DNA of 64,000 bases from Planctomycetota bacterium (GTDB lineage Bacteria; Planctomycetota; PLA2; JAEUHO01), in assembly GCA_965223505.1 (NCBI GenBank), contig CBDCWP010000009.1, positions 13,233 through 77,232 on the forward strand, read 5' to 3'. Positions 41,845 to 61,532 of this stretch are shown here, in pieces; position 1 is the first letter of the stretch; each line of letters begins with the position of its first letter. The notes beneath the pieces were generated by a model. That model was given only the letters and a program-made list of their open reading frames with translations. It was not told the origin of the DNA and did not search any database. Position numbers and translations under genes: made by a program.

Positions 41845-41853
41845 GCGGGCGGC

Positions 41854-42765
41854 GTGGCCAGCGCACAGGCATTCCGCAACGCACCGGACGCGGCGTACTA
41901 TGAGGCGGGCGGCGACGTCCCCGAAGCGGTCTCGCGTGAGCAGGTAAAGACGACCCGGCATTGGTTGCTCGAACGTGTCCACGTTCCGGCTCGCGTTCCC
42001 GGCGACCTGGCGATCGTGCCGCGGTCCACGGATGCGATCGAGCTCCTGCACTGGAAGCCGCGCGTCGCCGCGAGCCGCAAGCGCCCGCTGATCCTGATGT
42101 CGCCGATCCTGGGCAACACCACGATGCTCGTCGATCGATTTGCCGCGTACTTCGCGCGTGTCGGATTCCACGCGGTGATCGTTCAGCGCAAGGAGCTCGA
42201 CTTCCATCCGACCCAGTCACTCGAGCTGGCCGAGGCGGAGTACCGGACGCTGGTGATGCGAAGCAGGCAGGCACTCGACTGGCTGATCGAACAGGAGGGC
42301 ATCGACGAAACGCGACTGGGGACCTTCGGCGTCAGCGCCGGCGCCATCATCAGCAGCTTGGTTGCCGGTGCGGACTCGCGGCTTCGGGGGCATGTTTGGA
42401 TGTTGCCCGGCGCGCCGCTCTCCGACGTGATGATCGACACGGTCGAAGACCCGTTTCGCACCTACGTGCGGGACACGATGAAGGCCACGGGGCTGAACAA
42501 GGGCCAGCTGCGCGAACGGCTCACGGAGATCATGGTGACCGACCCGCTGATCCTCGCGGATCGCGTAGACACGAGCCGCGTGCTGCTCTTCCTGGCGCGG
42601 TTCGATCGCTCGGTGCCCACGGCCTCGGGGCTCGCGCTGTGGAAGGCGCTGGGGCGCCCTGAGCTCGTGATGATGCCCACCGGGCACTACACGACCTTCG
42701 TCGTGCTGCCGTGGCTCAAACGCCGCGCGCGCGCGCACTTCGAGCGAGTACTCGGCGGCCCGTAG
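41854..42765 (+). CDS. Alpha/beta hydrolase
   Basis: GVSAG nucleophile, FDRSVP, TGHY. Confidence 0.75.
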   Translation: MASAQAFRNAPDAAYYEAGGDVPEAVSREQVKTTRHWLLERVHVPARVPGDLAIVPRSTDAIELLHWKPRVAASRKRPLILMSPILGNTTMLVDRFAAYFARVGFHAVIVQRKELDFHPTQSLELAEAEYRTLVMRSRQALDWLIEQEGIDETRLGTFGVSAGAIISSLVAGADSRLRGHVWMLPGAPLSDVMIDTVEDPFRTYVRDTMKATGLNKGQLRERLTEIMVTDPLILADRVDTSRVLLFLARFDRSVPTASGLALWKALGRPELVMMPTGHYTTFVVLPWLKRRARAHFERVLGGP

Positions 42766-42777
42766 CGCCTGGAATGC

Positions 42778-42811
42778 CGACGGCGGCCGCCCCGTCGAGC
42801 GGCCGCCGTCG
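42778..42811. terminator. GC-rich hairpin between convergent genes
   Basis: CGACGGCGGCCGC-8 nt-GCGGCCGCCGTCG perfect 13-bp stem; no U tract. Confidence 0.5.
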
Positions 42812-42843
42812 CGGTGTGTCGTCGGTCTCGGTTCGAAGGAGCG

Positions 42844-45800
42844 CTAGTCGCGACAGTCGAGCCAGACGTTCTTGTCGTGGGCGCAGTCATCGAGCTCCGC
42901 CCAGATCAGCAGGTCTTGTGGCACACCCGTCACGTCGTGCCAGCAGTCGCACTCGAAATCGATGCGAACCCTCGCGCGCCAATGGTCGCCGCTGACGCGC
43001 CAGATCTTGGCAACCTTCAGGAACCCGTCGCGCTTGCCGTCGTCCCAGTGGTCGCCGTCGAACTCGACGCGGATATCCGCCAGGACCTTCGAGCCGTCCT
43101 TCGCCTTCACACGGAAGGTGTGGTCGTCTCGATCACCAATCCAGAAGTCGATGACGCAGAGCTCACGCATCTCCGTGCTCTCACACGGCTCGCACCAGCG
43201 CCAGGACTCCCAGCTCCAGGTGTCGACGACGAGGAAGCTCGCGTCGTACTTACAGTCGTTCCAATCGTCGCGCACTTGCCGCAGCCACCAGTCCTTGTCC
43301 TTCGACAAGTCGCACTCGGGCATCTCAGGACAGCCATCGGTCCAGTCGAACATGGCGCCCGGCCGGAGGTGCTCGCAGCGGAAGATCGCGCACCCTTCCT
43401 TCTCACATCCGTTGATTTCGACAGCGACACGGCGCTCGCGGTCGCCGAATCGCCCCTTGTAGAACCAGTCCTTCTGGGCGATCAGCTTGAGCGTGACGGT
43501 CGCGATGCCGTTGCGCACCACGACGTTCTCGACGATCAACACGCCGTCGTGCCCGACCTGCCGGCCCGGGAACGCACCCTTCCACTCGACCCAGACACTG
43601 TCGAGCTCGTCGGACCACGGCGAGCAGCCGTCGCGGAAGTCCGCGCCCAGCTGGAAGCAGTCTTCGTCGCCCACCCAGATCTTGGTTTCGAGCGTGACCT
43701 CGTGCAGGTCGCCCTCGCAGCAGGGGTTGTTCGGGCACTTCTCGCAGTAGCAATAGGTCGCCCAGAGCGTCTCACACGGCTCGAGACAGAGCGTGGTGAT
43801 CTCACTCTCACCCTCGCAAGGCTCCCAGTCCTTCAGTTGCGGTTGATCCTTGGAGACGCAGACGTCGTAGCAGCCGGGCGGGAGGCTCCAGCAGCAAACG
43901 CCCCACCTGTCGGTGAAGCCGGTCGAGATGACCTTGTCCGATCCCTTGCGCTTGATGTCGACCTTGATCCACTCGAGGTTCGTGTCGACGCCCTCATCGA
44001 ACTTGTCGTCACACTTGCCCTTCGGCTGGCCGAAGACGCGGACACAGATCCACTGCTCACACTTGCAGTAGCGGAAATCCTTGTCGCGGCAGCTGACGCC
44101 GCACTCCACCGTCGGCGTGTAGACCTTCGGGTCCTGCAAGATGTAGCTCGCGTTGCCCGGACCCTGGAGGATCCGGACCTCGACCTCGCCGGTCGGAACG
44201 TTCTCGAAGCAGTAGAGACCATCCGCATCGGTCGTCGTGGTGTCCCGGTAGCCGACGTCCAGCGCGAAGCCGCCGATCCCGATGATCTCGACGACCACGC
44301 CCTCGAGGCAGAGGTCCCCCTCCTTCATCCAGAACATGCCGTCGCAATCGCAATCGAGCCAGACCTTGCCGCACACCTCCTGGCAGCAGTACCCGAACTC
44401 GACGCGCTCTTCCTCGCCGCAATCGATCGTGACACACTGCTTGCGCTCACCCTTGCACAGGCACCAATACTGGCGCAGCTCGAAGGTGTCCTCGATCTCG
44501 ACGCAGTAGTCACCCGGCAAGAGCCCCTTGACCTTGACGCAACCGAAGGCGTCGGTCTCGAGATCCTGGATGAAGGTGCCGTTCGCGTCCGTCAGGACGA
44601 GACGAGCCTTGTTGATCGGAATGTCGCCGTCGTCGAACCGACAGTCGCACTCATCGACCGGCTCCTTCCAGACCTGGATCTTGATCGAGCCCAGCGGGCA
44701 GACCAGGAACTCGACGCGCGCCGCGCCCCCGTCGGGACAGACGACCGTCTTGCTCCGATCGGAGCACAGGCGCTTGTCCGCGGGTACGGAGCTCTCGTCG
44801 ATGGTCACCGTGTAGGTGCCGGGAACGAGGTTCAGGAACTCAACGCAGCCGTCGGCGTCGGTCGTGCCCATCCGGTCGCCGGGGCTGAGCATGATCTTCA
44901 CGCCGGGAACGCCCGGCTCGCCGGGCTCACAGACGCCGTCGCAGTCCGCGTCGCAGCAGACCTTGACCTTGATGTCGCAGGTCGGCGGCGGCTCGCAGCA
45001 GTAGCCGAAGTTGTTGTCGACCGACATGTCGACCTTGCCCAGTTCGACGAGATGCGAGCTCGGGAACGGACCGGCGGGATCACAGAAGACCTCGCCCGGA
45101 GGCGGCAACGGATCCGTCAGGATCGTGACGGTGTAGTTGCCGGGCGGCAGGTCGTAGTCGTCGTCGCTGAAGCAGTAGAACCCGTTGGCGTCCGTCACCT
45201 CGGTGAACCCGCCGGGATTGAGCTGGACCACCGCACCCGGAAGCGGGCTTTGCGGCGGGTTGGGCGGAACGCCGTTGAGCGGTCCCGGACCGCCGACCGA
45301 GGTCACCGCCGGGCCGCAGTACACCGTGCCGCAGATCGACACCGGACAGGTGAGCTGGAAGAAGCAATCCTGTTGCTCTCCGCCTGGCACCACCTCGATC
45401 ATGCAGCAGCCGTCGAGCGGGTTCAGGAACGAGGAGCCCGGCGCGAGCGACGCCGGGTCGATACACAGGTTGTACTCGCCGAACGGGAGTTGGTTGCCGT
45501 TCTCGTCGTCGAGGCAGATCTCGCCGTTCAGGTCCGTCGAGACCTGGCGGATCGTCTGGTTCGTGCCCTTGTCGATCACGTCGACCAGGATGCCGGCGCA
45601 GGGCACGTCGACGCCCTCGTCGAACTCGCTGTTCCCCGGCTTCGGACGGCTGCGCTCGCACCAGATCTTGATGAAGACTTTGGGCGTGTCGCAGTCGTAG
45701 ATGAAGTCGATGCCCGTGACCTCGGTCATCTGACCGGTCGGCGGCACCGTGACCTCGCGCGGGTTGTCGTTGTTCGGGCAGTTGGAGAGCACGATCGTCG

Positions 45801-48024
45801 TGTTCGGCGGCGGCGTCACGGAGACCGTGACGTCGTAGGTCTCGCCGGGTGTGAGCGGCTCGTCGGCGCTCGATATGAACTCCCAGCACGTCGTGAAGTC
45901 GCCGATGGTCACGGGGTACGTCGCTTCGTAGCTCGACGCGTTCCCGTCGATCGGCAGATCGCCGCCGGAGATCGTGACCGTGACGAGCGTGCCCAACGGC
46001 AAGTCCTCGTCACCGATGCAGTCGCCGTCGGTGTCGCAGACCAAGCACCCGCTGAGCTTGATCGGGCACTCGTAGATGAACGTGCAGGGCGGCAGCTTCG
46101 GCGGCAGCGACTCGGGTGTGTTGATCACGCACGGGTTCTCGTTGCCGGGACAGTCTTCCGGCGATTTGAGCGCCGGCATCGTCACGGTGGACGACGGCAC
46201 GCCGTCGACCGTGACGGTGACGTTGTAGACGGCATTGGGCTCGAGCTCGCCGCTGGTGAACTCGTAGCAGTCCGTGTCGGGGTTCAGCGTAAGCTCCACG
46301 CCGCCGCCCAGACCCGGCCCCGTCGCGGTCACGACGATGGTCTTGCCGGGGAAGACGACGTGCAGCGGTCGGTCGATCTCGCAGTCGCCGTCGTCGTCGC
46401 AGCCCAGGCAGGCCTCGATCGTCGTGTCGCAATCCTCCGGCGTCGTGCCGAAGTCTTCGCTCATTTTCAGGAAGATGAAGTTGCCCGCATCGACTTCGGC
46501 GAAGCGCACCGACCACAGGTTGTTCGCGCCGGGGTTCGCCTTGAAGTGATCCTTGTCGAGCGGAATGTTCAGGTACTGATCGTCGCCGTCCGTGGTCCAT
46601 GCGTCGGCGCCGGCGCCGTTGTCGAGCACCTGGATCGCCAGGACCTGGTCCTGCCTGTCGTTGTTCACCGAAGCGTGAATCGGCTGGAGTCCGTTCGTCG
46701 GTTGCAGACGCATGCCGGTCGCGAGGGGATGCAGCGGCTCGGACGAGTAGGCGACGCCGTTGAAGCCAGCAGCGAAGGGATCCGACACCGGGGTCGGTGT
46801 GATCGCCCAACGCACCGCGTCGCCGATGCGAAACGCCGTGTTGTCTCGGAGGTCCGTGACCGCCTCGCCGCCCATCCCGAACGCGAGCTGCGAGTGGCAG
46901 CCGCTTTCCAGGTTCGGGTCGGGATTGGGGTCGTTCGCCACACCGCCGTGGTCGGCCGGGATCCCGAAGTTCTCGAAGTCACAGTCGGGATCGTTCGCCT
47001 CGTTCTCGTCCCTCAAGATCGGAGGGTTCCAGTCCGCGTCCGACTCGCCGAAGATGAACGTGTCGGGGCAGATGACGCGCGTGTTGTGGAAGAAGAAGTC
47101 GAAGGTGCCGTCGTACTGGTTGATGCCACCGGAGGGCGGCGGAAGCGGTTCGCCGGGCATGGGATCCATGGTCTGGCCCTGCGGAACCTGGCCCTGGTTG
47201 ATGAAGGGATAGCGCTGGTCGATGATGCCGCCGGAGAAGCCGAGGATGCTCCCACCCGGAATGAGATACGTACTGTTGAACGCCACCTTGTGTCCGCAGC
47301 GTTCCGTGCCCTGAAGCAGGCCGCCCGGGAACGCGGGCAAGAGCGAGATGACCATGACGAACTTGTACGACGACGCGTCGTCCGGACGCGCATTACCGCC
47401 GAACTGGTTGTCGACGAGCGTCTCGAAGGCGGCCGGTTCCATGTCGAAGAACGCCGCCCACGCGTTGTCGGGCGAGGCGTCGGACGACGTCTCGAGCAGA
47501 CGCGTGATGCGGTTCGGCAGCGCGTCGTACTGGGGCGTTTCCGTACACCACTCGGTGACCGCCGCCGCCACGTCCATCCCGTCCTGCTTGTCCAAGAACA
47601 GGTCGAACTGCACGCGCGGGTGCTGCAGCAGGACACTGTCCGGAGCGAACTGATCCCACTTGCCTGTCACGTTTGGATCGAACAGCGCGATCTGCATCGG
47701 CGTGTCGTCGGCGCCCGGACGCTCGAAGTCGAGCTTGATGATCGTTCGAACCGGCTGGTCGACGAGCATGCCCCCCGCGTTCTTGCACTGCTCGCCCGTC
47801 GTGTTGTTCCCAAGCCCCGAAAGCACGAGGAACTTCGCGCTGTTCTCGTCCTTGTCGGGCAAAGCCTGGAAGGAGGCGTCGGCGATGACGGTGTCGGTCG
47901 ATGTCTCGAAGTTGTTGTTGTTGTCGACACGATCCGGATCGGGATCCGCCGCATCGGCAGGCAGCCCTCCCAGCACGATCGGAAGCGCGATCGCCGCGAC
48001 GACAATGAATAGACGATTGACCAT
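42844..48024 (-). CDS. Large secreted cysteine-rich protein with SdrD-B/Cna-B-like repeats (about 1,726 aa)
   Basis: GGAGGAG RBS; signal peptide MVNRLFIVVAAIALP...ADA; repeats such as CDADCDGVCEPGEPGVPGVKIML...TTDADGCVEFLNLVPGTYTV. Confidence 0.85.
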   Translation of the reverse strand: MVNRLFIVVAAIALPIVLGGLPADAADPDPDRVDNNNNFETSTDTVIADASFQALPDKDENSAKFLVLSGLGNNTTGEQCKNAGGMLVDQPVRTIIKLDFERPGADDTPMQIALFDPNVTGKWDQFAPDSVLLQHPRVQFDLFLDKQDGMDVAAAVTEWCTETPQYDALPNRITRLLETSSDASPDNAWAAFFDMEPAAFETLVDNQFGGNARPDDASSYKFVMVISLLPAFPGGLLQGTERCGHKVAFNSTYLIPGGSILGFSGGIIDQRYPFINQGQVPQGQTMDPMPGEPLPPPSGGINQYDGTFDFFFHNTRVICPDTFIFGESDADWNPPILRDENEANDPDCDFENFGIPADHGGVANDPNPDPNLESGCHSQLAFGMGGEAVTDLRDNTAFRIGDAVRWAITPTPVSDPFAAGFNGVAYSSEPLHPLATGMRLQPTNGLQPIHASVNNDRQDQVLAIQVLDNGAGADAWTTDGDDQYLNIPLDKDHFKANPGANNLWSVRFAEVDAGNFIFLKMSEDFGTTPEDCDTTIEACLGCDDDGDCEIDRPLHVVFPGKTIVVTATGPGLGGGVELTLNPDTDCYEFTSGELEPNAVYNVTVTVDGVPSSTVTMPALKSPEDCPGNENPCVINTPESLPPKLPPCTFIYECPIKLSGCLVCDTDGDCIGDEDLPLGTLVTVTISGGDLPIDGNASSYEATYPVTIGDFTTCWEFISSADEPLTPGETYDVTVSVTPPPNTTIVLSNCPNNDNPREVTVPPTGQMTEVTGIDFIYDCDTPKVFIKIWCERSRPKPGNSEFDEGVDVPCAGILVDVIDKGTNQTIRQVSTDLNGEICLDDENGNQLPFGEYNLCIDPASLAPGSSFLNPLDGCCMIEVVPGGEQQDCFFQLTCPVSICGTVYCGPAVTSVGGPGPLNGVPPNPPQSPLPGAVVQLNPGGFTEVTDANGFYCFSDDDYDLPPGNYTVTILTDPLPPPGEVFCDPAGPFPSSHLVELGKVDMSVDNNFGYCCEPPPTCDIKVKVCCDADCDGVCEPGEPGVPGVKIMLSPGDRMGTTDADGCVEFLNLVPGTYTVTIDESSVPADKRLCSDRSKTVVCPDGGAARVEFLVCPLGSIKIQVWKEPVDECDCRFDDGDIPINKARLVLTDANGTFIQDLETDAFGCVKVKGLLPGDYCVEIEDTFELRQYWCLCKGERKQCVTIDCGEEERVEFGYCCQEVCGKVWLDCDCDGMFWMKEGDLCLEGVVVEIIGIGGFALDVGYRDTTTTDADGLYCFENVPTGEVEVRILQGPGNASYILQDPKVYTPTVECGVSCRDKDFRYCKCEQWICVRVFGQPKGKCDDKFDEGVDTNLEWIKVDIKRKGSDKVISTGFTDRWGVCCWSLPPGCYDVCVSKDQPQLKDWEPCEGESEITTLCLEPCETLWATYCYCEKCPNNPCCEGDLHEVTLETKIWVGDEDCFQLGADFRDGCSPWSDELDSVWVEWKGAFPGRQVGHDGVLIVENVVVRNGIATVTLKLIAQKDWFYKGRFGDRERRVAVEINGCEKEGCAIFRCEHLRPGAMFDWTDGCPEMPECDLSKDKDWWLRQVRDDWNDCKYDASFLVVDTWSWESWRWCEPCESTEMRELCVIDFWIGDRDDHTFRVKAKDGSKVLADIRVEFDGDHWDDGKRDGFLKVAKIWRVSGDHWRARVRIDFECDCWHDVTGVPQDLLIWAELDDCAHDKNVWLDCRD

Positions 48025-48375
48025 CTGCGTTCTCCTCCGCATCCCCTGCGGCAGCTCGCCGGCCCGAATGAGGACCTCTGTCTCGCGCATTCGATGCACC
48101 TGGGATGCCGAACGACCTTCGCTTCCGGCTGCGCACACAAGTACCTGCCTGATCGAAGCTTGTGATCCCCCGGTGATCACCAAGCCGAACACCGTGTCCA
48201 AAAAGAACAGCGCGCGTTCAAGTTCTGCGACGGCCCCCATCCGGCAGGGCGCTGCGGGCAATACTGCGGAAAACCTGACAAGGAAGCCAGCGTTTTCGAT
48301 GAATCGCGATTGGGCGCCTCGGGACGGGACGCCGGGCGCCGCGCTCGCCGCGGGGCCGCGGCCCGACACAGCTGA

Positions 48376-48411
48376 AATTGCAAGAAGGGCGGGCTCGAAA
48401 GCCCGCCCTTC
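48376..48411 (-). terminator. Intrinsic terminator of the Cys-rich lipoprotein gene
   Basis: Minus strand GAAGGGCGGGCT-TTCG-AGCCCGCCCTTC followed by TTGCAATT. Confidence 0.75.
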
Positions 48412-48437
48412 CGCAGATGTCTCGGACGTGCTGCGCG

Positions 48438-49580
48438 CTACTCGTGCAGCGTGGTGCTCTCGGTCTCGACCGCGACCTCGGTGCCGTCTTCCATCTGGAC
48501 GGAGGCGGAGACCTGGACGAGCTTCGTCGGGGGCGCGGAGAGCACCTTCGCGTGGAACTCCATTGCGCGCTCCTGACCGACACCGAGCGGAAACACCGAG
48601 CTCGTCGCGCTCTGTCCACCGCCGTCGAACGTCACACCCTCGCCGCGTCCGGAAACGAACTCGAGATGCTCGGGCAGCGAGATCGCGACCTTCAGGTTGG
48701 GCATGGCTTCACTCGCCGCGTCGCTCAAGATCACCATCTTGTAGACGACGGTGTCGCCGGGACGGAAAATGCCTTCTTCCGAACCGTCCGCCGCCTTGTC
48801 GTCCATGCGGACCTCGAGGGCGGGAAGGGCTTCTTCGACCTCGACGGGAACCTCGCAGTCTTCGTTGCGACGCCACTCCCAGCGTCCGGGTGTCGTGCAG
48901 ACCTCCCGGGTGCGGGTCTCGTACTTCGCCGGCACCATGATGGTCTGGCAGAAACCCTCCTTGATCAGGTAGCGCTCCTCGACGCACTTGTAGCGAGCCG
49001 GCGAGTACTCGACGCAGAGCTTCGACGGCGCGACGCACACGCGCTCCTTGCGAGTGCCCCAGACCGCCGGCTTCACCTTCTTGACGTAGCACTCACACTG
49101 CGACTCGCCCTCCCCTGCGACGGTGGGCTTGCAGCACGTCTTGCACCACATCTCCTGCTCCGGCTTGACAAGGACGTCCTTGTCCTTGGTCGTCCACAGG
49201 CCCGGCTTGCACACCTCGCGAACGTTCGCGGGCGCCACACACACGAGCTTCGGGCGGTACCCGTACTCCGGCGGCACCCACACCTTCTTGCACTGCTTCG
49301 GGCAGACGCAAACGCGCTCGGTGACGGTCTTCGTGACGGGCGGGATCCAGTAGCGGCACCATGCCTCGCCGACGTTGGCCTCCGGCGGCTTGTCGGCGGG
49401 CCCGTCTGCGCACGGATCGACCGGCGCGCAGGGATCGCACGGGTCTTCGCAGGGATCCTCGCAGCACGCGACGGCCGAAATCGGATTTCGGCTGCCCGCG
49501 CAGGCTCCCAGCAGAAGCACGATCAGACAAAGGCTGAACAGGGTCAGCCAGGCTCGGTTACGCGAAGTCGTCGACGCCAT
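48438..49580 (-). CDS. Cysteine-rich lipoprotein: DPC head, PAxY repeats, C-terminal DUF11/OmcB-like domain
   Basis: Lipobox LLGAC; CCEDPCEDPCDPCAP; 25 Cys counted; GDTVVYKMVI...LPEHLEFVS...LGVGQERAMEF...ETESTTL. Confidence 0.75.
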   Translation of the reverse strand: MASTTSRNRAWLTLFSLCLIVLLLGACAGSRNPISAVACCEDPCEDPCDPCAPVDPCADGPADKPPEANVGEAWCRYWIPPVTKTVTERVCVCPKQCKKVWVPPEYGYRPKLVCVAPANVREVCKPGLWTTKDKDVLVKPEQEMWCKTCCKPTVAGEGESQCECYVKKVKPAVWGTRKERVCVAPSKLCVEYSPARYKCVEERYLIKEGFCQTIMVPAKYETRTREVCTTPGRWEWRRNEDCEVPVEVEEALPALEVRMDDKAADGSEEGIFRPGDTVVYKMVILSDAASEAMPNLKVAISLPEHLEFVSGRGEGVTFDGGGQSATSSVFPLGVGQERAMEFHAKVLSAPPTKLVQVSASVQMEDGTEVAVETESTTLHE

Positions 49581-49812
49581 TCCGGCAATCCTCCCTGGAG
49601 CGCTGTGCAGGCGGTCGCGGAGCGAATCCACGACGCCGAACGGCCCTCCCTCAGACCGGTCTGCGATGCCCGCGGAGCGTACCACCGGATCGCCGCGATC
49701 CGATGGCCCGAAAGCCGCCGGATGAAGCCGCCGGGCCCGTGCAACCGCCTTCCAAGCGGTCCGTGGGCCGCCGGCGTCACGGCACTGTCACCGGCGCGGT
49801 CGACCCGGCGAT

Positions 49813-50649
49813 CTAGTTCCCGGCTTTGGCGAGAAACGCGTCGCGCAACGCCTTCGCTTCGTCATGCAGACTCGTGTTCGTGAACGCGCCGACCAGTCGC
49901 TCGTAGGCGCCGCGCGCCCCGCGACGATCCCCGGACGCGAACAGGCGGTCCGCGGCTCGGGCGCGAGCCTCCATCGTCTCGCGCGCGAGGGTGGTCACCT
50001 TCGCCGCAGCGGCCTCCTCCTCCGCCGTTACGTCCTCGGCTTTCATCGCGCGTTCGCTCAGCAGGAGCGCGTGACCCAGGCGCCCGTGCCAGACGTCTTC
50101 GCGAATCGTCTTGAAGGACGCCGGCACCTTGCCGAGCTGCTGAAGCCGGTAGCGGCGCAGCTCTTGCTCGATGATGGGCACCGACATCTTGTTGCTCGAC
50201 TTGACGCGGCCGTCGGTCCCGATGACGTAGTCGACCGGCCGGCGACCGACGCCGTATTTGGCAGCCTGCGAGCCGTCGCGATCGCAAGCGACGGGAAAGT
50301 CGTACCGCGGGTTCAACGTGCGCAGCTTCCCGCGAACGACGTCGGGTCGGTGCTCGTGCACGACGGTGAGCACCTGCAGCCCGCTCGTTCCGTAGCGGTC
50401 GTAGAGGTCCTGCACCTCCTTGAGCTGCCGGTGACAGATCGGGCAGTCCTTGAGCCAGAACTTCACCCACACCACCTTGCCGCGGTGCGCGGAGAGCGTC
50501 GTCCCTTTCTCGAAGCCGTTGAACCCTTCACGAAACGACATGTCGGGCGCCATCTGGCCGTCCAGGTCGCGGCCGGCGGCGAACACGTCGTCTCCGGAAA
50601 ATGCGGTGACGACCAGCGCGAGTAGGACGGGTCCGAAGATGTTGCGCAT
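49813..50649 (-). CDS. Exported TlpA-like thioredoxin-fold protein with helical C-terminal extension
   Basis: Signal peptide; APD, RGKVVWVKFWLKDCPIC, YGV..RP..YVIGTDGRV. Confidence 0.8.
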   Translation of the reverse strand: MRNIFGPVLLALVVTAFSGDDVFAAGRDLDGQMAPDMSFREGFNGFEKGTTLSAHRGKVVWVKFWLKDCPICHRQLKEVQDLYDRYGTSGLQVLTVVHEHRPDVVRGKLRTLNPRYDFPVACDRDGSQAAKYGVGRRPVDYVIGTDGRVKSSNKMSVPIIEQELRRYRLQQLGKVPASFKTIREDVWHGRLGHALLLSERAMKAEDVTAEEEAAAAKVTTLARETMEARARAADRLFASGDRRGARGAYERLVGAFTNTSLHDEAKALRDAFLAKAGN

Positions 50650-50737
50650 GTGCCTGCTCTCACACGGGACGGCCGACTCTCCGTGATTCTACGGGTCGAA
50701 GGGCCGCCGGGCGACGATCAGGTTTGCGGCGTTGCGC

Positions 50738-52216
50738 TCAGCTCTTGGCGGTTCGCGCACCCCAACGCGTGTGGCGCCACACGTCGGGATGGAAGAGCGC
50801 CAGAATCGCCATGATCTCGAGCCGCCCGAACCACATCCCGATCGCAAGCAGCAGCTTGATGCCGTCGGAAAAGCCGTCGAAGCTGTCCATGGGTCCGACC
50901 GGGCCGAATCCGGGACCGATATTGCCCAAGCACGCGAGACTCGCGCTCATCCCGGTCACCATGTCGGCCTCGCCCGACGCCACGACGATGGTCCCGAGGA
51001 CCAGATACGCCAGCAGGTAGAGCACGACCAGCGTGATGACCGCGCGCAGCACACCGCTCTTGATCGGACTCGTCTTGTAGCGGATCGGTATGACGGCGCG
51101 CGGGTGGAGGACCTGCGTCGCCTCGCGCCGGATGAACTTGAAGAGCAGCAGGTAGCGAATCATCTTCGGTCCGCCGCACGCGGAGCCGGCGCACCCACCA
51201 AGCAGCATGGCCACGACGAGCAACATGCGCGCACCGTCGCCCCACTGCGGTGATCGCACGTAGTCGACGCTCGCATAGCCCGTGGACGAAGCGAGGCTCG
51301 TCACCTGGAACGCGGCGTCGCGGATCGCACCCATCCCGAAGTCGCCTCCGGATATCAGCATCGCGACCGCGAGCGTCGCGATCAGGCACATGAAGAAGTA
51401 CGCGAGGAACTCGCCGTCGCGGAGCAGGGAGCCGGGCTTGCCCGATACCGCGCGCCATTGAAGCGGATAGCTCGTCCCGGAGATGACCATGAAGACGACG
51501 AAGATCCACTCAGCCGTCGGATTCGCGTACCCCATGATGGACTCGCCGTTCGGCGAGAAGCCGCCGGCAGAGAGCGTCGTCAGCGCGTGCACCGCAGCGT
51601 CGTACCAATCGAACCCCGCCCACAACAGACACCCGGTGAGGATCGCGGTCAGACCGATGTAGAGCAGCCACAAGCGCGTGGCGGCGGAGCGGACCTGCGG
51701 GCTGATCCCTTCGGACGTCGCCGTAGACGCCTCGGCGAAGAACAGCTGACGTCCGGCAATGCCGAGTCGCGGCAGCACGACGACGAACAGCGCGATGACG
51801 CCGATGCCGCCGAACCACTGCGTCATTGCGCGCCAGAGAAAGAACGCCCGGTTGTAGTTCGGCGAGCTGAAGTCGAGCACCGTCGCGCCCGTGGTGGTCA
51901 AGCCGGACATGGCCTCGAAGAACGCGTTGACGGGGGGCATCCCGTGAAACAGGTACGGCACCCCGGCGAACGCGGCGACGACCAGCCACGTTCCGCTCAC
52001 GACCGCCATCGCCTCGCCGCGATGGAGGAAGTCGGTCTTCTGGAATCCGCGCGCCATCACGCTGCCGATCGCAGCGGCCGCGACGAGCGAGATGGCGAAG
52101 TAGCCCGCCACCTGGTATTCCCCGTCGATCATCGCCATGAAAATCGGCGCCAGGAAGGCGATCGAGAACAGCCGCAGCAGGTTGCCGATCACCCCGAGGA
52201 CGAGCGAGACGCGCAT
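50738..52216 (-). CDS. trkH: Trk potassium uptake membrane protein
   Basis: FEAMSGLTTTGAT, SAGGFS, STGY, GGCAGSACGGPK, LGNIGPG, GRLE. Confidence 0.95.
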   Translation of the reverse strand: MRVSLVLGVIGNLLRLFSIAFLAPIFMAMIDGEYQVAGYFAISLVAAAAIGSVMARGFQKTDFLHRGEAMAVVSGTWLVVAAFAGVPYLFHGMPPVNAFFEAMSGLTTTGATVLDFSSPNYNRAFFLWRAMTQWFGGIGVIALFVVVLPRLGIAGRQLFFAEASTATSEGISPQVRSAATRLWLLYIGLTAILTGCLLWAGFDWYDAAVHALTTLSAGGFSPNGESIMGYANPTAEWIFVVFMVISGTSYPLQWRAVSGKPGSLLRDGEFLAYFFMCLIATLAVAMLISGGDFGMGAIRDAAFQVTSLASSTGYASVDYVRSPQWGDGARMLLVVAMLLGGCAGSACGGPKMIRYLLLFKFIRREATQVLHPRAVIPIRYKTSPIKSGVLRAVITLVVLYLLAYLVLGTIVVASGEADMVTGMSASLACLGNIGPGFGPVGPMDSFDGFSDGIKLLLAIGMWFGRLEIMAILALFHPDVWRHTRWGARTAKS

Positions 52217-52218
52217 GG

Positions 52219-53589
52219 CTAGGCGGATCCGTCTTCCGCGAGATGCTCGAGCCGATTCATCAGGAAGTTGCGGATCTTGTCGTCCTCTTCCTTCGTGCAG
52301 AAGACCAGCAGGCGGTCGTCCCCCTGAACGACGTCGTCACCGCGCGGAATGATGACGCGCCCCTTGCGCAGGATCGCCCCGATGATCGCGAAGACCTCGG
52401 TGCGCATCTTCGTGAGCGGGACGGGCTTGAGCCCCGCGGGCAACTTGAGCTCGATGACCTCCGCGTCACCGTGCTCGAGCTCGGCCAGCAACTGTGAGCG
52501 GCTGGTGTCGATGCGGCGCAGCACGGAGCGCATCGCCGCGCCGCTGGCGGAGCGCACGACGTCGATGCCGACCTTCTCGAAGAGCCGCTCGTTCGCGACG
52601 TGGTTCGCGCGGGTCACGATCCGCTTCACGCCGAGACTCTTCGCGAGCAGCGAAACGAGGAGGTTTTTCTCGTCGTGGCTGGTCACGGCGACGAGCACGC
52701 CGGATTCGCCGATCTGCTCCTCCTCGAGGAGATCGAGATCGGTGCCGTCGCCGTGGAGCACGAGTCCCTGCACGAGTGCCGACACGGCCTCGCTTCGCTT
52801 GCGGCTCGACTCGATCAGCTTCACGTTCCAACCGGCCTCCTCGAGTCCCAACGCGACCGACAAGCCGACGACGCCGCCGCCGACGACGGTAGCGCTCGTG
52901 CTTTGGGAGCCGTTGGCCGACGTACGCAGATAGCGCGAGAGGAGGCGATTGATGCCCGCCATGGTCCCCATCGCGGTGACCTTGTCGCCGGGCTGGAAGT
53001 GGGTGTCGCCCTTCGGGAGCAGCATCTCGTCGTCGCGGCGGGCCATGACGAGCACCACGCCCTCCGGCACGCCGACGTCCTTGAGCGGCCCGCGCGTGAT
53101 GGGCGCACCGTCCTCGATGGCATGCCGCAAGAGATGCACGCGTCCGCCCTCGAACGCCTCGACGTCGAGCGCGCCGGGCACGGCGATGATGCGCAGGATC
53201 TCCGTCGACAACTGGTGCGCGGGGCGAACGACGAGCCCGAGACCGAGGGACTCGGCGAACGCGTCGACGTCGTCTTCCGACGCCTGTGTCTCGGGCCGGA
53301 ACTGGAAGCAGATCGTACGCTTGGCGCCCAGCCGCGACGCCGTCAGACAGGAGACGAGGTTCTGCTCGTCGATCGGCGCCGCGCCGATGAAGATCTCGGC
53401 GGACTCGACACCGGCTCTGCGCAACACGTCCGCGGACGTCACCCGCCCGAAGACCATCTCGACGTCGAGACGCGAGTGCGTGCCCCCCTCGTCGGTCTCC
53501 GGCAGGATGAGCGTCACCTCGTGCTCTTCCATCAGGGCTTCCGCCAGTCGGAAGGCCACCTCGTCTTCGCCGCCGATCAGGATGTGCAT
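52219..53589 (-). CDS. trkA: Trk potassium uptake regulatory protein (two RCK units)
   Basis: Two RCK N/C pairs; VVGGGVVG, LHGDGTD, DEKN; adjacent to trkH. Confidence 0.9.
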   Translation of the reverse strand: MHILIGGEDEVAFRLAEALMEEHEVTLILPETDEGGTHSRLDVEMVFGRVTSADVLRRAGVESAEIFIGAAPIDEQNLVSCLTASRLGAKRTICFQFRPETQASEDDVDAFAESLGLGLVVRPAHQLSTEILRIIAVPGALDVEAFEGGRVHLLRHAIEDGAPITRGPLKDVGVPEGVVLVMARRDDEMLLPKGDTHFQPGDKVTAMGTMAGINRLLSRYLRTSANGSQSTSATVVGGGVVGLSVALGLEEAGWNVKLIESSRKRSEAVSALVQGLVLHGDGTDLDLLEEEQIGESGVLVAVTSHDEKNLLVSLLAKSLGVKRIVTRANHVANERLFEKVGIDVVRSASGAAMRSVLRRIDTSRSQLLAELEHGDAEVIELKLPAGLKPVPLTKMRTEVFAIIGAILRKGRVIIPRGDDVVQGDDRLLVFCTKEEDDKIRNFLMNRLEHLAEDGSA

Positions 53590-53698
53590 GGAATGGCCGT
53601 CACTCGTTTACGCCGAGAGGGACGCGTGCAGGGCGACGCAATTGTAGAGAGGCCCGCTTCGTCCCCCACAAGAGAACTCGGCTGGGCGTCGTCCCCAC

Positions 53699-54490
53699 CT
53701 AACGCACATTTGCCGCCGCCTGCTCCTCGGCCACGACGGTAGGGATCAGACCGGCCAGACGCTCGGCGCGCGCGGCGGGCTCGGGGTGGGTCGAGAGGAA
53801 CTCCGGCTGCCGGTCGCCGGCGCGCGCGCCCATGCGCTGCCAGAGCCGGACCGCGGCGTAGGGGTCGTAGCCTGCGCGGACCATGTATCGCAAGCCGATC
53901 GCGTCGGCTTCGTACTCGTGGGTGCGCGAGTAGGGCAACGTGAATCCGACCTCCGCGCCCAGTCCGAGCCCTGCCATGACGACGTCCCGCGTCGAGCCCG
54001 TCGCGTTGCCCAGCGTCACCTCGGCGATGCCCAACACGCCCTGGGAGACCAGCTCCTGGCTGACGCGCTCGGCGCCGTGATGCGCCGTTGCGTGCGCGAC
54101 CTCGTGCCCGATGACGGCGGCAAGCCCGTTCTCGTCCTGCGTGATCGGGAGGATGCCGGTATAGACGGCGACCTTGCCACCGGGCAGGCAGAACGCGTTG
54201 ACCGTGTCGGGATCGTCGATCAGCTTGAACTCCCAGGCGAAGTTCTCGCCGGTCGTCGCCGCGATCCGGCGTCCGACGCGCTCTACCATCTGCGCCTCCG
54301 GCGTGCCGGTGATGATGCGCTTGTCCTTGAGGATCTCCTCGTAGGCCTCGATGCCCATCGACATCTCCTGCGACTCGCTGATGAGCCGCAGTTGAGAACG
54401 ATCCGTGAACGGAACGCTGCCGCAGGCCGCGATCACGACCGGCGCAATGGCGATCCACGCGCACGTCACGATCCATCCCTGTACTCGCAT
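53699..54490 (-). CDS. M48-family metallopeptidase lipoprotein
   Basis: IAAC lipobox; VNAFCLPGG, GHEVAH, EYEAD, FLSTHP. Confidence 0.92.
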   Translation of the reverse strand: MRVQGWIVTCAWIAIAPVVIAACGSVPFTDRSQLRLISESQEMSMGIEAYEEILKDKRIITGTPEAQMVERVGRRIAATTGENFAWEFKLIDDPDTVNAFCLPGGKVAVYTGILPITQDENGLAAVIGHEVAHATAHHGAERVSQELVSQGVLGIAEVTLGNATGSTRDVVMAGLGLGAEVGFTLPYSRTHEYEADAIGLRYMVRAGYDPYAAVRLWQRMGARAGDRQPEFLSTHPEPAARAERLAGLIPTVVAEEQAAANVR

Positions 54491-54585
54491 GACGCAAACC
54501 CCCTTCGCCGGCTCGCAGACCGGTCCGTCAGTCGGGCCAAGTGGTCAACTGCGATTGTGCACGGGGACGCAGCGCCGGTCGCGGG

Positions 54586-56658
54586 CTACTCGGTCCGTTC
54601 CGCCCGCGCGAGGCAACGCCGGGCGACGGCGGCGACGTTTTCGGCCGTGAAGCCGTACTCTTCCATCAGGCGGTCTCCCGGCGCGGACGCGCCGAAGCGA
54701 TCGACCGTGACGAGGTCGCCGCTCGGCCCGATCCAGCGGTGCCAACCCAAGGACGCGCCGGCTTCGATGCCGATCCGCACGTCGCAGCCGCCGAAGAGCG
54801 CTTCCCGATCGTCGGCGTCCATCTCGTCCAGGCGCTCCCAGCACGGCATGGAGACGACGCGCGCCGTCACGCCCTCGTCCTGGAGCAAGCGCGCGGCGTC
54901 GAGCGCGAGCGCGACCTCCGAGCCGGTGGCCAACAACACGACGTCCGGGTTCACCGCGCCCTCGCGCAGGACGTACGCACCGCGTGCCGTGCCCGAGGCC
55001 GGCGCCAGCCGGTCGCGATCGAGAATCGGCAGGCCCTGGCGCGTGAGGATCAGCGCCGTCGGCCCGTTCGACTCGAGCGCGATACGCCATGCCTCGGCGG
55101 TTTCGTTGGCGTCCGCGGGCCGCACCACGTTCAAACCGGGGATGGCGCGCAGCGCCGCGAGGTGCTCGATCGGCTGATGCGTCGGGCCGTCCTCGCCGAC
55201 CCCCAGCGAATCGTGCGTGAAGACGTAGACGACGGGCAGCTTCATGAGCGCGGCCAGGCGGATCGCGGCGCGCATGTAGTCGCTGAACACCAGGAAGGTG
55301 CCGCCGTACGGTCGGATCCCTCCGTGCAGCGCCATGCCGTTCATGACCGCGCCCATCGCGTGCTCGCGTACGCCGAAGTGCAAGGTGCGCCCTTCGTAGG
55401 CGCCCGCGCGAATGTCGGTCGTGCCGGGCAGCGTCGTGTTGTTCGAGCCGGCCAGATCCGACGAGCCGCCGATGAGCAGGGGAATGTGCGCGCCGAGCGA
55501 CGCCAAGACCTTGCCGGACGCCTTGCGCGTCGCCAGCTTCGCGCCGGCGTCGAACGTCGGCAGCGCCGAAGACCATTCGGCGGGCAGCTCGCCGGCCCAC
55601 GCCGACTCGAGCGCGGCCGCGCGTTCGGGATGGGCGCTGCGGTAGGCGTCCATGCGCGCTTCCCAGCGCTCGACCTCGGCGGCGCCGCGCGCGCCCACCT
55701 CGCGCATGTGCGTGGCCACGTCGTCGGGCACCAGGAACTGCGCGTCCTCGGGCCAACCGAGGGCCTGCTTGGTCAAGCGGACCTCGTCCTCGCCCAGCGG
55801 CGCGCCGTGCGCGGCGGAGCTGTCCTGCTTGTTGGGGCTGCCGTGTCCGATGTGGGTGCGGCAGCAGATGAGCGTCGGCTTCGACGTCTCGGCGCGCGCG
55901 GCATCGCACGCCTGCACGTAGGCGTCGGTGCCCTCGTCGACGTGCACCGAGAGAACGTTCCAGCCGTACGCGGCGAAGCGAGCCGCCACGTCTTCGCTGA
56001 ACGAGAGGTCGGTCGTGCCGTCGATCGTGATGCGGTTGTCGTCCCAGAACACGCACAGCTTGTGAAGGCCCAAATGGCCGGCGAGGCTCGCCGCCTCCGC
56101 GCACACGCCTTCCATCAGATCGCCGTCGCTCGCGAGCACCCACGTGCGGTGATCCACTACTTCGTGCTCGTCCGTGTTGAAACGCGCTGCCAGGAGGCGC
56201 TCGGCGAGCGCCATGCCGACGCCGTTTCCGAAGCCCTGGCCCAGGGGACCGGTCGTCGTCTCGACGCCCGGCACCTCGCGGTACTCGGGGTGCCCGGCGG
56301 CGGGGCTGCCCCACTGCCGGAAGTTCTTGATCGCGTCCAGCGACAGGTCGTAGCCGGTCAGGTGCAGATAGGCGTACTGCAGCATGCTCGCGTGTCCGCA
56401 CGAGAGCACGAAGCGGTCGCGATCCGCCCAGGTCGGATGGGCGCTGCTGTACTTCATGACGCGGGTCCAGAGCGCGTAGCCCAGCGGCGCCTGGCCCATG
56501 GGCGGCCCCGGATGCCCGGCGCGGGCGGCCTGAACGGCGTCCATGGCGAGCGTTCGCACCGTGTTGATGGTGAGCGCTTCGAGGCTGGTCCCGGCGGGCT
56601 GCGGATCCGACACGGTCACCTCGTCTCCGGTGTGTGAGCTCGCAACGGAATCCGACAT
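54586..56658 (-). CDS. tkt: Transketolase
   Basis: GHPG, DRDRFVLSCGH, TTGPLGQG, DGDLMEG, FGVREH, THDSLGVGEDGPTHQP. Confidence 0.97.
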   Translation of the reverse strand: MSDSVASSHTGDEVTVSDPQPAGTSLEALTINTVRTLAMDAVQAARAGHPGPPMGQAPLGYALWTRVMKYSSAHPTWADRDRFVLSCGHASMLQYAYLHLTGYDLSLDAIKNFRQWGSPAAGHPEYREVPGVETTTGPLGQGFGNGVGMALAERLLAARFNTDEHEVVDHRTWVLASDGDLMEGVCAEAASLAGHLGLHKLCVFWDDNRITIDGTTDLSFSEDVAARFAAYGWNVLSVHVDEGTDAYVQACDAARAETSKPTLICCRTHIGHGSPNKQDSSAAHGAPLGEDEVRLTKQALGWPEDAQFLVPDDVATHMREVGARGAAEVERWEARMDAYRSAHPERAAALESAWAGELPAEWSSALPTFDAGAKLATRKASGKVLASLGAHIPLLIGGSSDLAGSNNTTLPGTTDIRAGAYEGRTLHFGVREHAMGAVMNGMALHGGIRPYGGTFLVFSDYMRAAIRLAALMKLPVVYVFTHDSLGVGEDGPTHQPIEHLAALRAIPGLNVVRPADANETAEAWRIALESNGPTALILTRQGLPILDRDRLAPASGTARGAYVLREGAVNPDVVLLATGSEVALALDAARLLQDEGVTARVVSMPCWERLDEMDADDREALFGGCDVRIGIEAGASLGWHRWIGPSGDLVTVDRFGASAPGDRLMEEYGFTAENVAAVARRCLARAERTE

Positions 56659-56743
56659 GGGCCGCGCCCTCCCTTCGGCGGTTCTGGTTGTGGCGGGATT
56701 CTAGCCACCCAGGCCCCCGCTCCCGACCGGAGTTCGCAGTGGA

Positions 56744-58114
56744 TTACTTCCCCCCGCCGGTCAGCACGGGCGGCGTCATCGGAATGAAGGGCTTGCGCGT
56801 GCTGCGCTTCAGGAAGAGGAGCGCGAAGCACGTTTGCGAGGTGGCGAGCTCGGTCGCGTCGGCCGGCCGATCTTTCTTGTCCGCTTCCTTCCATCCACCC
56901 TCGGCTTCCTGAGCGCTGAGCAGGTACTCCGCGCCCTCCCGGTACCAATCGTGCTTGCCGATCCAGCGCACACCGGTCTTCGCGCCGACGCGCTCGAGGC
57001 CGTAGAGGTAGTAGTAGTGCCACATCTGCGGCGTGCCCGACGTGTCCGGGTTGTCTTTGACCGTGAACACGTCCGCCAGCCACGCCAAGCCGTCGAGAAT
57101 GCCCCGGTCCATGCGCTTGCGCAGCGCCGGATCCAGCTTCTTCAGGAGCCAGAGCCGCTCCTTCGTCAGCGCCAGGCACGTGACGCCCGCCGCCGTCATC
57201 GAGCCGGTCGGGTACATCTGCTGGCCGGGGATGTAGGTCCAGCCTCGCATCTGCGTCTCGCCGACCTCCTTGAAGCGCGACGCCGGGTCGTCCCCGGGTT
57301 CCCAGGCTTCGTTCTCGATGAAGATCGGGACGTCGAGCCCGTCGTCTTCCTGGGACGTCAGGACGTACTCGGCGGCCTTCTGCCAGGTTTCGGGGGGCGC
57401 CACGATGCCGCAGCTCGCGGCCGCCTCGAGCGCCAGCAACGCGTATTGCACGTTCGAGAGGTCGGTCTCGCCCTCCTCGGCCGCGATGGGGTTGCCCGGG
57501 TACCGCCAGCCGCCCGAGGGGTGCTGATTGCGAACGATGAGGCTCACCAGCTCCTTGATCCACTTCCGGACCCACGACGGGTACTTGCACTTGGCGGGCT
57601 TCGGAGGGACGGCCTTGCCGTAGCGGTCCCGCTTGAGCGGCTTCGGCTTCTCGATCCCCCGGTAGAGAGCGTCGAGCGCCATGATCAGCGTCGCGGCGGT
57701 GTAGATCGTGACCTGGTTGTTGCCCTTCAGATTCCATGAACCGTTGCCGCCGGCGTAGTGGAATTGGCAGAACTTCATGCACTTCTTGACGCTGTCGTGG
57801 TCCGGCTCTACGCCGCAGTGCGCCAGCGTGAGCATGACGAGCGCATTCAGCCCCACCTCCATGATGTTGTACTGGCGCGGCAGGAGGTCTTCGCTGAAGC
57901 CGGGGTAGCTGCCGTTCTTCTTCTGGGTGCCCTGCAACCACGCGACGCCGCGGTCGATCGCCTTGTTGACGCGTTCTTGGAACGCTGCCAGGTCCTTCGC
58001 GGCCTTGGCCTTCGCGGCCTCGCGATCGACGGGCTTGGCGTCGTCGGCGACGGCAGTCGAGAGACAGCAGGGCAGGGCGATCGAGAGCAACAGCATCAGG
58101 CGAACGACACGCAT
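56744..58114 (-). CDS. Secreted prenyltransferase/squalene-oxidase-repeat (alpha/alpha barrel) protein
   Basis: Signal peptide; QW-like motifs QKKNGSY, QHPSGGW, QEAEGGW; YYLYGLERVG...DWY; TCFALLFL. Confidence 0.8.
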   Translation of the reverse strand: MRVVRLMLLLSIALPCCLSTAVADDAKPVDREAAKAKAAKDLAAFQERVNKAIDRGVAWLQGTQKKNGSYPGFSEDLLPRQYNIMEVGLNALVMLTLAHCGVEPDHDSVKKCMKFCQFHYAGGNGSWNLKGNNQVTIYTAATLIMALDALYRGIEKPKPLKRDRYGKAVPPKPAKCKYPSWVRKWIKELVSLIVRNQHPSGGWRYPGNPIAAEEGETDLSNVQYALLALEAAASCGIVAPPETWQKAAEYVLTSQEDDGLDVPIFIENEAWEPGDDPASRFKEVGETQMRGWTYIPGQQMYPTGSMTAAGVTCLALTKERLWLLKKLDPALRKRMDRGILDGLAWLADVFTVKDNPDTSGTPQMWHYYYLYGLERVGAKTGVRWIGKHDWYREGAEYLLSAQEAEGGWKEADKKDRPADATELATSQTCFALLFLKRSTRKPFIPMTPPVLTGGGK

Positions 58115-58175
58115 GGCGACACCCTACCGCCGTCGTCCGTGCACGCTCAAGCGTGAAGGGCGCCGGGACACGAAA

Positions 58176-58213
58176 CGAAAAAACGGCCCCGCGTCGGAGG
58201 ACGCGGGGCCGTT
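58176..58213 (-). terminator. Intrinsic terminator of the second Cys-rich lipoprotein gene
   Basis: AACGGCCCCGCGTC-4 nt-GACGCGGGGCCGTT perfect stem followed by a T run on the minus strand. Confidence 0.85.
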
Positions 58214-58285
58214 GATCTCTGCTTCGTGCGAAGCGAACCATTCCGCTTCGCGCGAGGCGAAGCCGGAAGTACTGGGTCGGAGGGA

Positions 58286-59095
58286 CTACTCGTCGCCGGA
58301 CTCTTCGGCCGGAGCGACCTCGACCTCGCCGCCTTCACCGGCGTCGTCCGGGACTTCGCAGTCCTTGTTGCGGCGCCACTCCCAGCGGCAGGGCTCGACC
58401 TGGCGCTTGCGCACGACGGTCTTGTACTTGGCCGGGACCTGCTCGGTCTCGTAGTAGCCGGCCTTCGTGCAGACCTGCTCTTCGACCGTCTTGAACTTCG
58501 CGGGGATCGTCTCGGTCTCGGTGCGAGCCGGCGTCACCATCACGCGTTTGGTCACGGTCTTGTACTTGGCCGGAATCTCGACCAGCATCCAGCAGTCACC
58601 CTGCTTCTGGCCCTCTTCGAGCATCTTCGGCGTGCAGTCGACCTTGCGCCACTCGGTGCGCGCCGGGCAGCAGCAAACCTGCTCTTCCTGATTCTCGTAG
58701 ACGGCGGGAATCGTGGTGCACTTCTGCTGCGCCGGCTGGCAGCACACCTGACGCGTGCGCGTCTCGTACTGCGGCGGAACCCAGGTCTTCTTGCAGCCCG
58801 CGGGCTCACATATGACCTGCTCTTCGTACTCCTCGAACTTGGCGGGGATGAAGATGCGACACCAGGCCTCACCGGCCTTGGCCTCTTCCGGGATCCCGTC
58901 GGGACGCCGGCTCGAGCACGGATCGCAGTCATCGCAGGGATCGCACGGGTCGCAGTCGGTCCCGCACGGATCGATGTCGATGTCGCACAGATCAATGTCA
59001 CACGGATCGAAATCACACGGGTCCCAACCGCAGCATCCCGCCGCGAGGGTCCCACAGACCGCTACGACGAGCATGGTCTTCAAAGCGTTGGCCAT
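58286..59095 (-). CDS. Cysteine-rich lipoprotein with DPC head and six 23-aa PAxY repeats; paralog of 48438..49580
   Basis: AAGGAGG RBS; LAAGCC lipobox; 26 Cys in 269 aa; shares GEAWCR and RWEWRRNxDCEVP with the paralog. Confidence 0.8.
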   Translation of the reverse strand: MANALKTMLVVAVCGTLAAGCCGWDPCDFDPCDIDLCDIDIDPCGTDCDPCDPCDDCDPCSSRRPDGIPEEAKAGEAWCRIFIPAKFEEYEEQVICEPAGCKKTWVPPQYETRTRQVCCQPAQQKCTTIPAVYENQEEQVCCCPARTEWRKVDCTPKMLEEGQKQGDCWMLVEIPAKYKTVTKRVMVTPARTETETIPAKFKTVEEQVCTKAGYYETEQVPAKYKTVVRKRQVEPCRWEWRRNKDCEVPDDAGEGGEVEVAPAEESGDE

Positions 59096-61457: not shown

Positions 61458-61532
61458 GCCTCCAACCCGCGCACGCGCCGCGAGTGCGGGCTACAGTGGC
61501 GGTTCCTTCCTCGAAACGCGCGAGAACCTCCC

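Follow-up and report, generated by a model that had tools for sequence, protein, structure and literature searches.

Do the cysteine-rich exported proteins encoded beside a thioredoxin-fold gene in a Planctomycetota bacterium build a disulfide-linked envelope scaffold, and if so, is it one of the kinds already described? We addressed this question in a window of 64,000 nucleotides (GenBank assembly GCA_965223505.1, contig CBDCWP010000009.1, positions 13,233 to 77,232), which is part of contig C9 of a 5.15-Mb genome that is 92% complete. Four minus-strand genes are at issue: those for a giant cysteine-rich protein, two lipoproteins (lipoprotein 1 and lipoprotein 2) and a thioredoxin-fold protein (trx). 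A sequence-only reading had taken them for a scaffold like the chlamydial OmcA/OmcB layer, with its own redox catalyst; its coordinates, strand, cysteine counts and paralogy of the two lipoproteins all hold (Table 1; 40% identity over 191 residues, E 7e-41). In cysteine content both lipoproteins lie near or above the 99th percentile of the genome (5.8%; median 1.1%) and the giant slightly under it, as judged from a rough, noisy set of 4249 open reading frames. Our preferred answer, which we hold with evenly balanced confidence, is that the lipoproteins are rods disulfide-linked into an envelope scaffold atop the peptidoglycan, maintained by the adjacent trx, with the giant as an optional neighbour.

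Predicted rod fold and cysteine placement in the lipoproteins

Neither lipoprotein scored above the cut-off of any Pfam or NCBIfam family, and no Pfam model covers the rod. The rods are composed of 23-residue units with a 12-2-7-2 pattern, seen in lipoprotein 2 as a 69-nucleotide spacing of DNA repeats, and a lipobox is present in both lipoproteins and in 13/13 orthologues of lipoprotein 2. AlphaFold, supplied with 72 homologues, modelled lipoprotein 1 as a disordered Cys/Asp/Pro linker, a single hairpin (residues 74-238) and a beta-sandwich head; the two strands are symmetric (74-148 and 164-238), the tip spans 149-163, and pLDDT is 85.3. The top covariation anti-diagonal, i+j=312, computed from the same alignment as the model, is also the model's register. 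Length variation behaves accordingly: among 25 lipoprotein-2 rods, 14 span 168-172 residues and the remaining 11 are longer by about 2, 4, 6, 8 or 12 units, so that lengths step by 46 residues and odd additions are never seen, as expected when both arms of a hairpin extend together. With AlphaFold, covariation and length steps in agreement, the earlier description of the lipoproteins as rod-like gains support at the level of prediction. We predict lipid-anchored beta-hairpin rods of about 25 nm (at 3.3 A per residue, an upper bound that ignores twist), with the lipid anchor and the head at the same end. Fold searches gave no solved counterpart of the rod among their matches, those with lipoprotein 1 being dominated by the head and barely probing the rod, and we found no paper describing this rod family in the open-access literature.

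Two cysteine pairs, C75/C242 at the base and C150/C164 at the tip, are almost invariant, and in the topology of the model the members of each lie near one another; they are probably intrachain. Along the shaft, with distances taken by strand register in 63 full-length homologues, 100 of the 611 cysteines have a cross-strand cysteine within two residues, compared with 31 +/- 2% under random placement, and 436 have neither a cross-strand nor a same-strand cysteine neighbour at that distance (median 7 per chain). In the paralogue sets, cross-strand partners were found for 0/131 shaft cysteines (13 rods) and 0/58 (9 rods). Several partnerless cysteines are conserved: C114 (70/72), C182 (71/72), C228 (56/71) and C211 (52/72). 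We propose inter-chain disulfides because the shaft cysteines avoid cross-strand partners, a pattern that points to bonding between chains. The sequence-only reading had named exclusively intramolecular pairing as the result that would speak against it; under the hairpin model, conserved shaft cysteines are predicted to lack an intrachain partner.

We also considered a staggered inter-chain register, since cysteine matches peak at shifts of about -9 and +9. The 9/14 bulge spacing of the repeat can give rise to these peaks and covariation has none there, so we retain the register as a lead only.

Thioredoxin-type genes beside the rods

In the family search, trx matched AhpC-TSA (7e-16) and Redoxin (6e-11). 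It shares with the TlpA/ResA oxidoreductases the Redoxin/AhpC-TSA fold, the CxxC motif, the cis-proline and export, the last judged by eye from a signal-peptide-like N-terminus. It differs from them in staying under all the curated NCBIfam cut-offs (50.8 of 170 bits for ResA, 15.7 of 230 for TlpA and 33.9 of 210 for StoA), in a helical C-terminal extension of about 110 residues and in the confinement of its orthologues to the family. CPxC and the cis-proline are kept in all 24 sequences, comprising 20 orthologues and four tandem second copies. In 19 of the 20 relatives that could be judged, trx stands immediately upstream of a gene of the lipoprotein-1 type; four of 24 were left out, namely G007 (no trx hit, 57% complete) and G012, G023 and G024 (contig ends). 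The tandem copies, where another CPxC thioredoxin gene lies upstream of the original one, occur in L028, L029, L031 and L059, all with a headless lipoprotein 1.

This adjacency alone is weak, because unrelated genes of the same block are similarly conserved. The trx gene also closes a conserved tkt-(M48)-(trkA-trkH) block at its 3' end, 88 bp after trkH and with lipoprotein 1 lying 232 bp beyond, in a genome with 17 Redoxin hits and about 34 thioredoxin-fold hits among about 4200 genes. The neighbourhood could therefore be incidental, the rods serving as struts or small disulfide-stiffened oligomers without any lattice and trx, as the last gene of a transketolase-Trk block, serving general periplasmic redox. 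The conservation pattern argues partly the other way: in G014 trx and the lipoprotein gene stand together away from the transketolase block, and elsewhere the M48, trkA and trkH genes are variably present while trx persists.

The strongest counterweight to an incidental neighbourhood lies outside the window. The genome holds four rod paralogues, two of them on contigs C12 and C26, and the third is found directly upstream of a gene for an unrelated thioredoxin-type protein, an exported DUF255 (Thioredox_DsbH) protein, in this genome and at 9/9 relatives' loci (10/10 in all; the nine, L068-L073 and L076-L078, came from 11 fetched). At C12:8129-11539 (L053) the protein next to paralogue 3 combines DUF255/DsbH, six-hairpin and DsbD_N parts and carries a CHWC motif, and a DsbD_N domain was likewise seen in the DsbH-type orthologue that was scanned whole. 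The fourth paralogue (C26:19350-20042, L054) is a divergent rod lipoprotein of 230 residues with 20 cysteines, upstream of a ferredoxin-like gene. That two of the four rod genes have a thioredoxin-fold neighbour has a post hoc p of ~0.002. Taking gene order as our guide, we consider the second thioredoxin-type neighbour a stronger redox link than the trx adjacency, and we regard a purely incidental neighbourhood as rather unlikely.

The class of these enzymes raises another alternative. TlpA/ResA proteins are normally reductases, not oxidases, and the DsbH/DsbD-N class is reducing too. The shaft cysteines might thus be kept reduced, free or metal-binding, as a metal or oxidant sink or as attachment sites for proteins, which would suit their shunning of pairing positions, their widely varying number (4-28 per rod in the paralogue sets) and the CC, CxC and CCC clusters among them. 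The genome, however, encodes one VKOR, implying an oxidising periplasm, together with two DsbD-type domains; DsbB was not found in the 92% of the genome that is covered. Moreover, several near-invariant cysteines stand at fixed repeat phases, isolated on the strand, a placement more in keeping with registered bonds than with a metal site, and no conserved histidine appears among the listed alignment columns. We judge such a thiol array quite unlikely.

In the disulfide-linked scaffold that we prefer, lipid-anchored hairpin rods would bond side to side through their shaft cysteines, VKOR would oxidise these cysteines, and DsbD would feed the TlpA-like protein and the DsbH/DsbD-N protein, which would reduce or reshuffle them, while the DUF11-type head of lipoprotein 1 would dock partners. 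The dedicated redox catalyst of the sequence-only reading is upheld in its conserved adjacency and active site; its dedication to the rods is still conjectural, given the transketolase block that it ends and the usual role of its class.

Several points weigh against this scaffold. The pTM of the AlphaFold model is just 0.44, the cysteine distances follow strand register and not coordinates, the homologues are kin, so that cysteine counts are not independent, and lipoprotein 1 of the window itself has two cross-strand pairs (4/10 shaft cysteines). On the side of the neighbouring genes, G005 retains trx with transketolase and has no lipoprotein 1, the transketolase and cyclase-like genes are conserved in the block about equally well, and some paralogue-3 rods hold only 4-6 cysteines yet keep the DsbH neighbour. 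BLAST found no trx, DsbH-type or giant neighbour at 20/20 rod loci of four other planctomycete families, some of these rods being very cysteine-rich (58 cysteines). Of these points, the G005 arrangement, the equally conserved housekeeping genes and the bare rod loci also favour an incidental neighbourhood. Lastly, with peptidoglycan synthesis and two OmpA-type domains present, it is not evident why a substitute wall would be needed.

Relatives of the rod and known disulfide-linked envelopes

Rod lipoproteins were hit in 24/24 genomes of the family and 0/16 others, and a profile search outside the family found rods in 14/290 genomes, headless and with 4-58 cysteines. The extreme case, a 580-residue headless rod with 58 cysteines from another planctomycete family (L088:4375-6117, G252), has no thioredoxin neighbour that we could see, and its cysteine enrichment apparently arose independently. 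More broadly, the homologues of the rod make up a large family without a name (740 hits; 1395 clusters at 50% identity; E down to 2e-47), and 102 of 140 newly listed representatives end in a PG_binding_1-type head (PF01471). These peptidoglycan-headed rods, from Gammaproteobacteria and others, have the same repeat, base motifs and tip cysteine as the family rods. Their rod cysteines are odd in number in 95/95 scored (99 examined) and, in a second set, in 75/93 (9 excluded), 50 of which have exactly three; they carry a lone invariant tip cysteine, the partner position not being cysteine. This arrangement suggests covalent tip-to-tip joining in many bacteria.

The family rods differ in lacking that head, in holding 11-26 cysteines (62 scored of 72) where the peptidoglycan-headed ones mostly hold 3-5, in their paired tip cysteines and in the thioredoxin-fold genes alongside. 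No PF01471 head was found on either lipoprotein, and no family match extends over that head. From these comparisons we infer that the family rod descends from a widely distributed peptidoglycan-binding rod that lost its head and gained about seven free shaft cysteines per chain, a direction read from the headed form being the more widespread one and not from a rooted tree.

Precedents for disulfide-linked envelopes are the YTV wall proteins and the outer membrane complex of chlamydiae (COMC), as described in parts of PMC8567305, PMC10632474 and PMC6752827. YTV proteins (PF07639) are likewise exported, cysteine-rich and made of beta-repeats, and passages of PMC8567305, PMC10632474 and PMC12673574 report them from wall preparations and propose that they regulate wall rigidity. 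Their repeat has a period of about 16 residues by eye, against 23 in the rods, and the rods are lipoproteins. PF07639 matched neither lipoprotein, none of the 72 homologues and 0/25 family genomes, the control planctomycete G038 being positive. Homology of rods and YTV proteins was rejected on an hhalign probability of 0.3 (E 0.23) and a BLAST E of 0.39 against two YTV proteins of one genome; a YTV cluster suggested by the ESM Atlas at 0.81, under its reliable range, was dropped after these comparisons. Two YTV hits in a sister family turned out to be unrelated proteins of 720-880 residues with 0-2 cysteines. These weakly YTV-scoring proteins (L066:2540-5173, L067:2258-4417) have a pilin-like N-terminus and a long inserted beta-repeat, possibly another long hairpin.

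The COMC shares with this locus a cysteine-rich lipoprotein and Dsb-type enzymes. It is held together by inter-protein disulfides, according to parts of PMC6752827 and PMC2811131, the latter giving 9 kDa for OmcA and 60 kDa for OmcB. By comparison, the rods measure 27-40 kDa and have another fold, the locus has no omcAB-like gene pair, and peptidoglycan synthesis is kept. The lipoproteins gave no chlamydial Pfam or NCBIfam match, and Chlam_OMP6 (PF03504) had no hits in the genome, nor in the control genomes. Membership in the OmcA/OmcB or YTV families finds no support; a cross-linked rod scaffold would work like YTV walls and the COMC while belonging to neither. Nor does a Chlamydia-like substitute for the wall fit a genome with murA, mraY, FtsW, RodA and penicillin-binding proteins/transpeptidases. 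Since full peptidoglycan synthesis is retained, any rod scaffold would supplement the wall.

The giant protein, the DUF11-type head and the gene neighbourhood

In the original model the lipoproteins stand for OmcA, the giant for OmcB and trx for a dedicated oxidase of one obligatory Chlamydia-like layer. The order trx-lipoprotein-giant is indeed found in 9/19 relatives and the giant lies 5.7 kb away in one more (G014), its orthologues are all cysteine-rich (2.3-4.1%), and it is adjacent or near solely where lipoprotein 1 has a head (10/13 against 0/6, phylogenetically confounded), a confounded hint at docking of partners. Of the co-occurrence expected earlier, the trx-lipoprotein half stands, and the giant's half is seen in some relatives only. 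The giant was unmatched in 8/24 family genomes that carry rods, a hairpin and 413 bp separate its gene from lipoprotein 1, and the Pfam search matched SdrD_B (93.6 bits in four stretches, cut-off 29.7) and no DUF11. OmcB is a DUF11 protein whose cysteine-rich body consists of tandem DUF11 domains; here a DUF11 domain does exist, as the single head of lipoprotein 1, and the multi-DUF11 lipoprotein of the genome lies elsewhere, on contig C30. With the peptidoglycan genes intact as well, we consider this obligatory layer very unlikely, and on gene content and order the giant is an optional neighbour and not an OmcB equivalent; its proposed part as core scaffold finds no support.

In layout the giant matches SdrD-B/DUF11 (CLIPPER) adhesin stalks: a signal peptide, an N-terminal domain, a tandem SdrD-B-like stalk and C-terminal domains, the usual layout of a fibrillar surface protein in the portion of 10.1101/2025.04.25.650565 that covers it. 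It departs from them in the 7-12 cysteines of each stalk domain and in terminal domains without a Pfam family. The N-terminal domain is conserved; its model (pLDDT 50, from 11 sequences) gave a best Z of 6.3 to assorted beta-sandwiches, which is uninformative, and a homologue search returned one relative besides itself among the best 7998 candidates scored. An anammox S-layer match (20 of 1400 bits, 70 residues) was dismissed as a shared stalk domain. Orthologues at L034, L057 and L021 bear Lys/Ser-rich basic C-terminal tails, which the giant of the window does not. Probably it is a surface or adhesin-type chain that is transcribed on its own and whose disulfides form mostly within domains.

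The head of lipoprotein 1 has a CnaA-like immunoglobulin (Ig) fold and aligns with 9IFR (Z 13.7, root-mean-square deviation 3.2, 119 residues), 7WRK tying. It differs from CLIPPER domains in lacking the isopeptide Lys/Asn: as read from alignment columns, not superposed structures, a conserved Lys is missing from the first strand and an Asn from the late strands. A DUF11 domain was matched in 37/72 lipoprotein homologues, the head is free of cysteine in 62/72, and it is missing in 6/19 lipoprotein 1 orthologues. The same head terminates three unlinked proteins of the genome: the C30 lipoprotein (L050:830-3003), with Big_1 and tandem DUF11 domains, and two secreted two-domain proteins of about 265 residues on C38 (L051) and C42 (L052). 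One independent public contig lacks the two single-base frameshifts of the C30 gene (L050:904 and 1473), which are probably artefacts of assembly. Each family genome has several proteins with this head, which may serve them as a common module for docking or sorting.

Table 1. Features of the window discussed in the text, in window coordinates
Feature	Position	Strand	Description
15-bp hairpin 3' of giant gene	42778-42811	minus	faces convergent alpha/beta-hydrolase gene
Giant cysteine-rich protein gene	42844-48024	minus	1726 aa, 92 Cys (5.3%); signal peptide, ~480-aa N-terminal domain, SdrD-B/prealbumin-like chain, two C-terminal domains
Perfect 12-bp hairpin 3' of lipoprotein 1	48384-48411	minus	TTCG loop, weak T-tract; not in terminator scan list
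Lipoprotein 1 gene	48438-49580	minus	380 aa, 25 Cys, lipobox LGAC27
DUF11/CLIPPER-like Ig head of lipoprotein 1	48441-48827	minus	C-terminal; without isopeptide Lys/Asn
Rod of lipoprotein 1	48855-49370	minus	predicted two-stranded beta-hairpin, residues 71-242; AlphaFold and covariation
trx gene	49813-50649	minus	thioredoxin fold; 278 aa, 3 Cys, CPIC at residues 69-72
CPIC active site of trx	50434-50445		
Conserved intervening block	50738-58114	minus	squalene-cyclase-like alpha/alpha barrel, transketolase, M48 peptidase, TrkA, TrkH
Squalene-cyclase/prenyltransferase-like gene	56744-58114		exported alpha/alpha barrel
Intrinsic terminator of lipoprotein 2	58182-58213	minus	14-bp stem and T6, canonical
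Lipoprotein 2 gene	58286-59095	minus	269 aa, 26 Cys (9.7%), headless paralogue of lipoprotein 1
Rod of lipoprotein 2	58358-58873	minus	headless paralogue of lipoprotein 1
Efflux genes	59733-63898		outer-membrane efflux protein, HlyD-type adaptor, ABC ATPase

The three neighbouring genes (giant, lipoprotein 1, trx) are co-oriented as described, with the gaps given above and a hairpin between the first two. Perfect-stem terminators had been assigned to both lipoprotein genes: that of lipoprotein 2 is canonical, and similar stems follow most of its orthologues, whereas the stem after lipoprotein 1 is perfect with a weak T-tract and is best called terminator-like, either a terminator or a stabilising stem. 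A sigma-70 scan of the window returned no promoter, which is uninformative at its GC content. The GC content at third codon positions is 0.86-0.89 in all four genes, as in their neighbours, and one public contig, probably from the source sample and so not independent, is identical across 41500-56047. A search for related loci yielded only two.

The block between the two lipoprotein genes, in which transketolase and TrkA were identified by eye from sequence motifs and not by family search, joins them physically but probably not in function. Its cyclase-like gene lies directly or nearly directly downstream of lipoprotein 2 family-wide. On the other side, the efflux genes are divergent from lipoprotein 2 and kept in most relatives; they could be an export route or mere synteny.

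New here are the headless, cysteine-studded rod, the even-step rule of its length, the unpaired cysteines of shaft and tip and the twofold association with thioredoxin-type genes. To our knowledge, YTV proteins have been reported from the class Planctomycetia only and OmcA/OmcB from Chlamydiae only. This family may hold a third independent disulfide-cross-linked envelope among Planctomycetes-Verrucomicrobia-Chlamydiae (PVC) bacteria: a tip-cysteine-joined, peptidoglycan-binding rod would have lost its head, become four cysteine-studded paralogues and recruited two thioredoxin-type editors, converging on YTV and OmcA/OmcB with peptidoglycan kept. We advance this history tentatively, as somewhat improbable in its full form. 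If it is true, PVC bacteria would have evolved cysteine-cross-linked envelopes more than once, and such envelopes would be compatible with a wall: this planctomycete family lacks YTV proteins, contains peptidoglycan and has an unrelated cysteine-rich rod with repeated thioredoxin-type neighbours.

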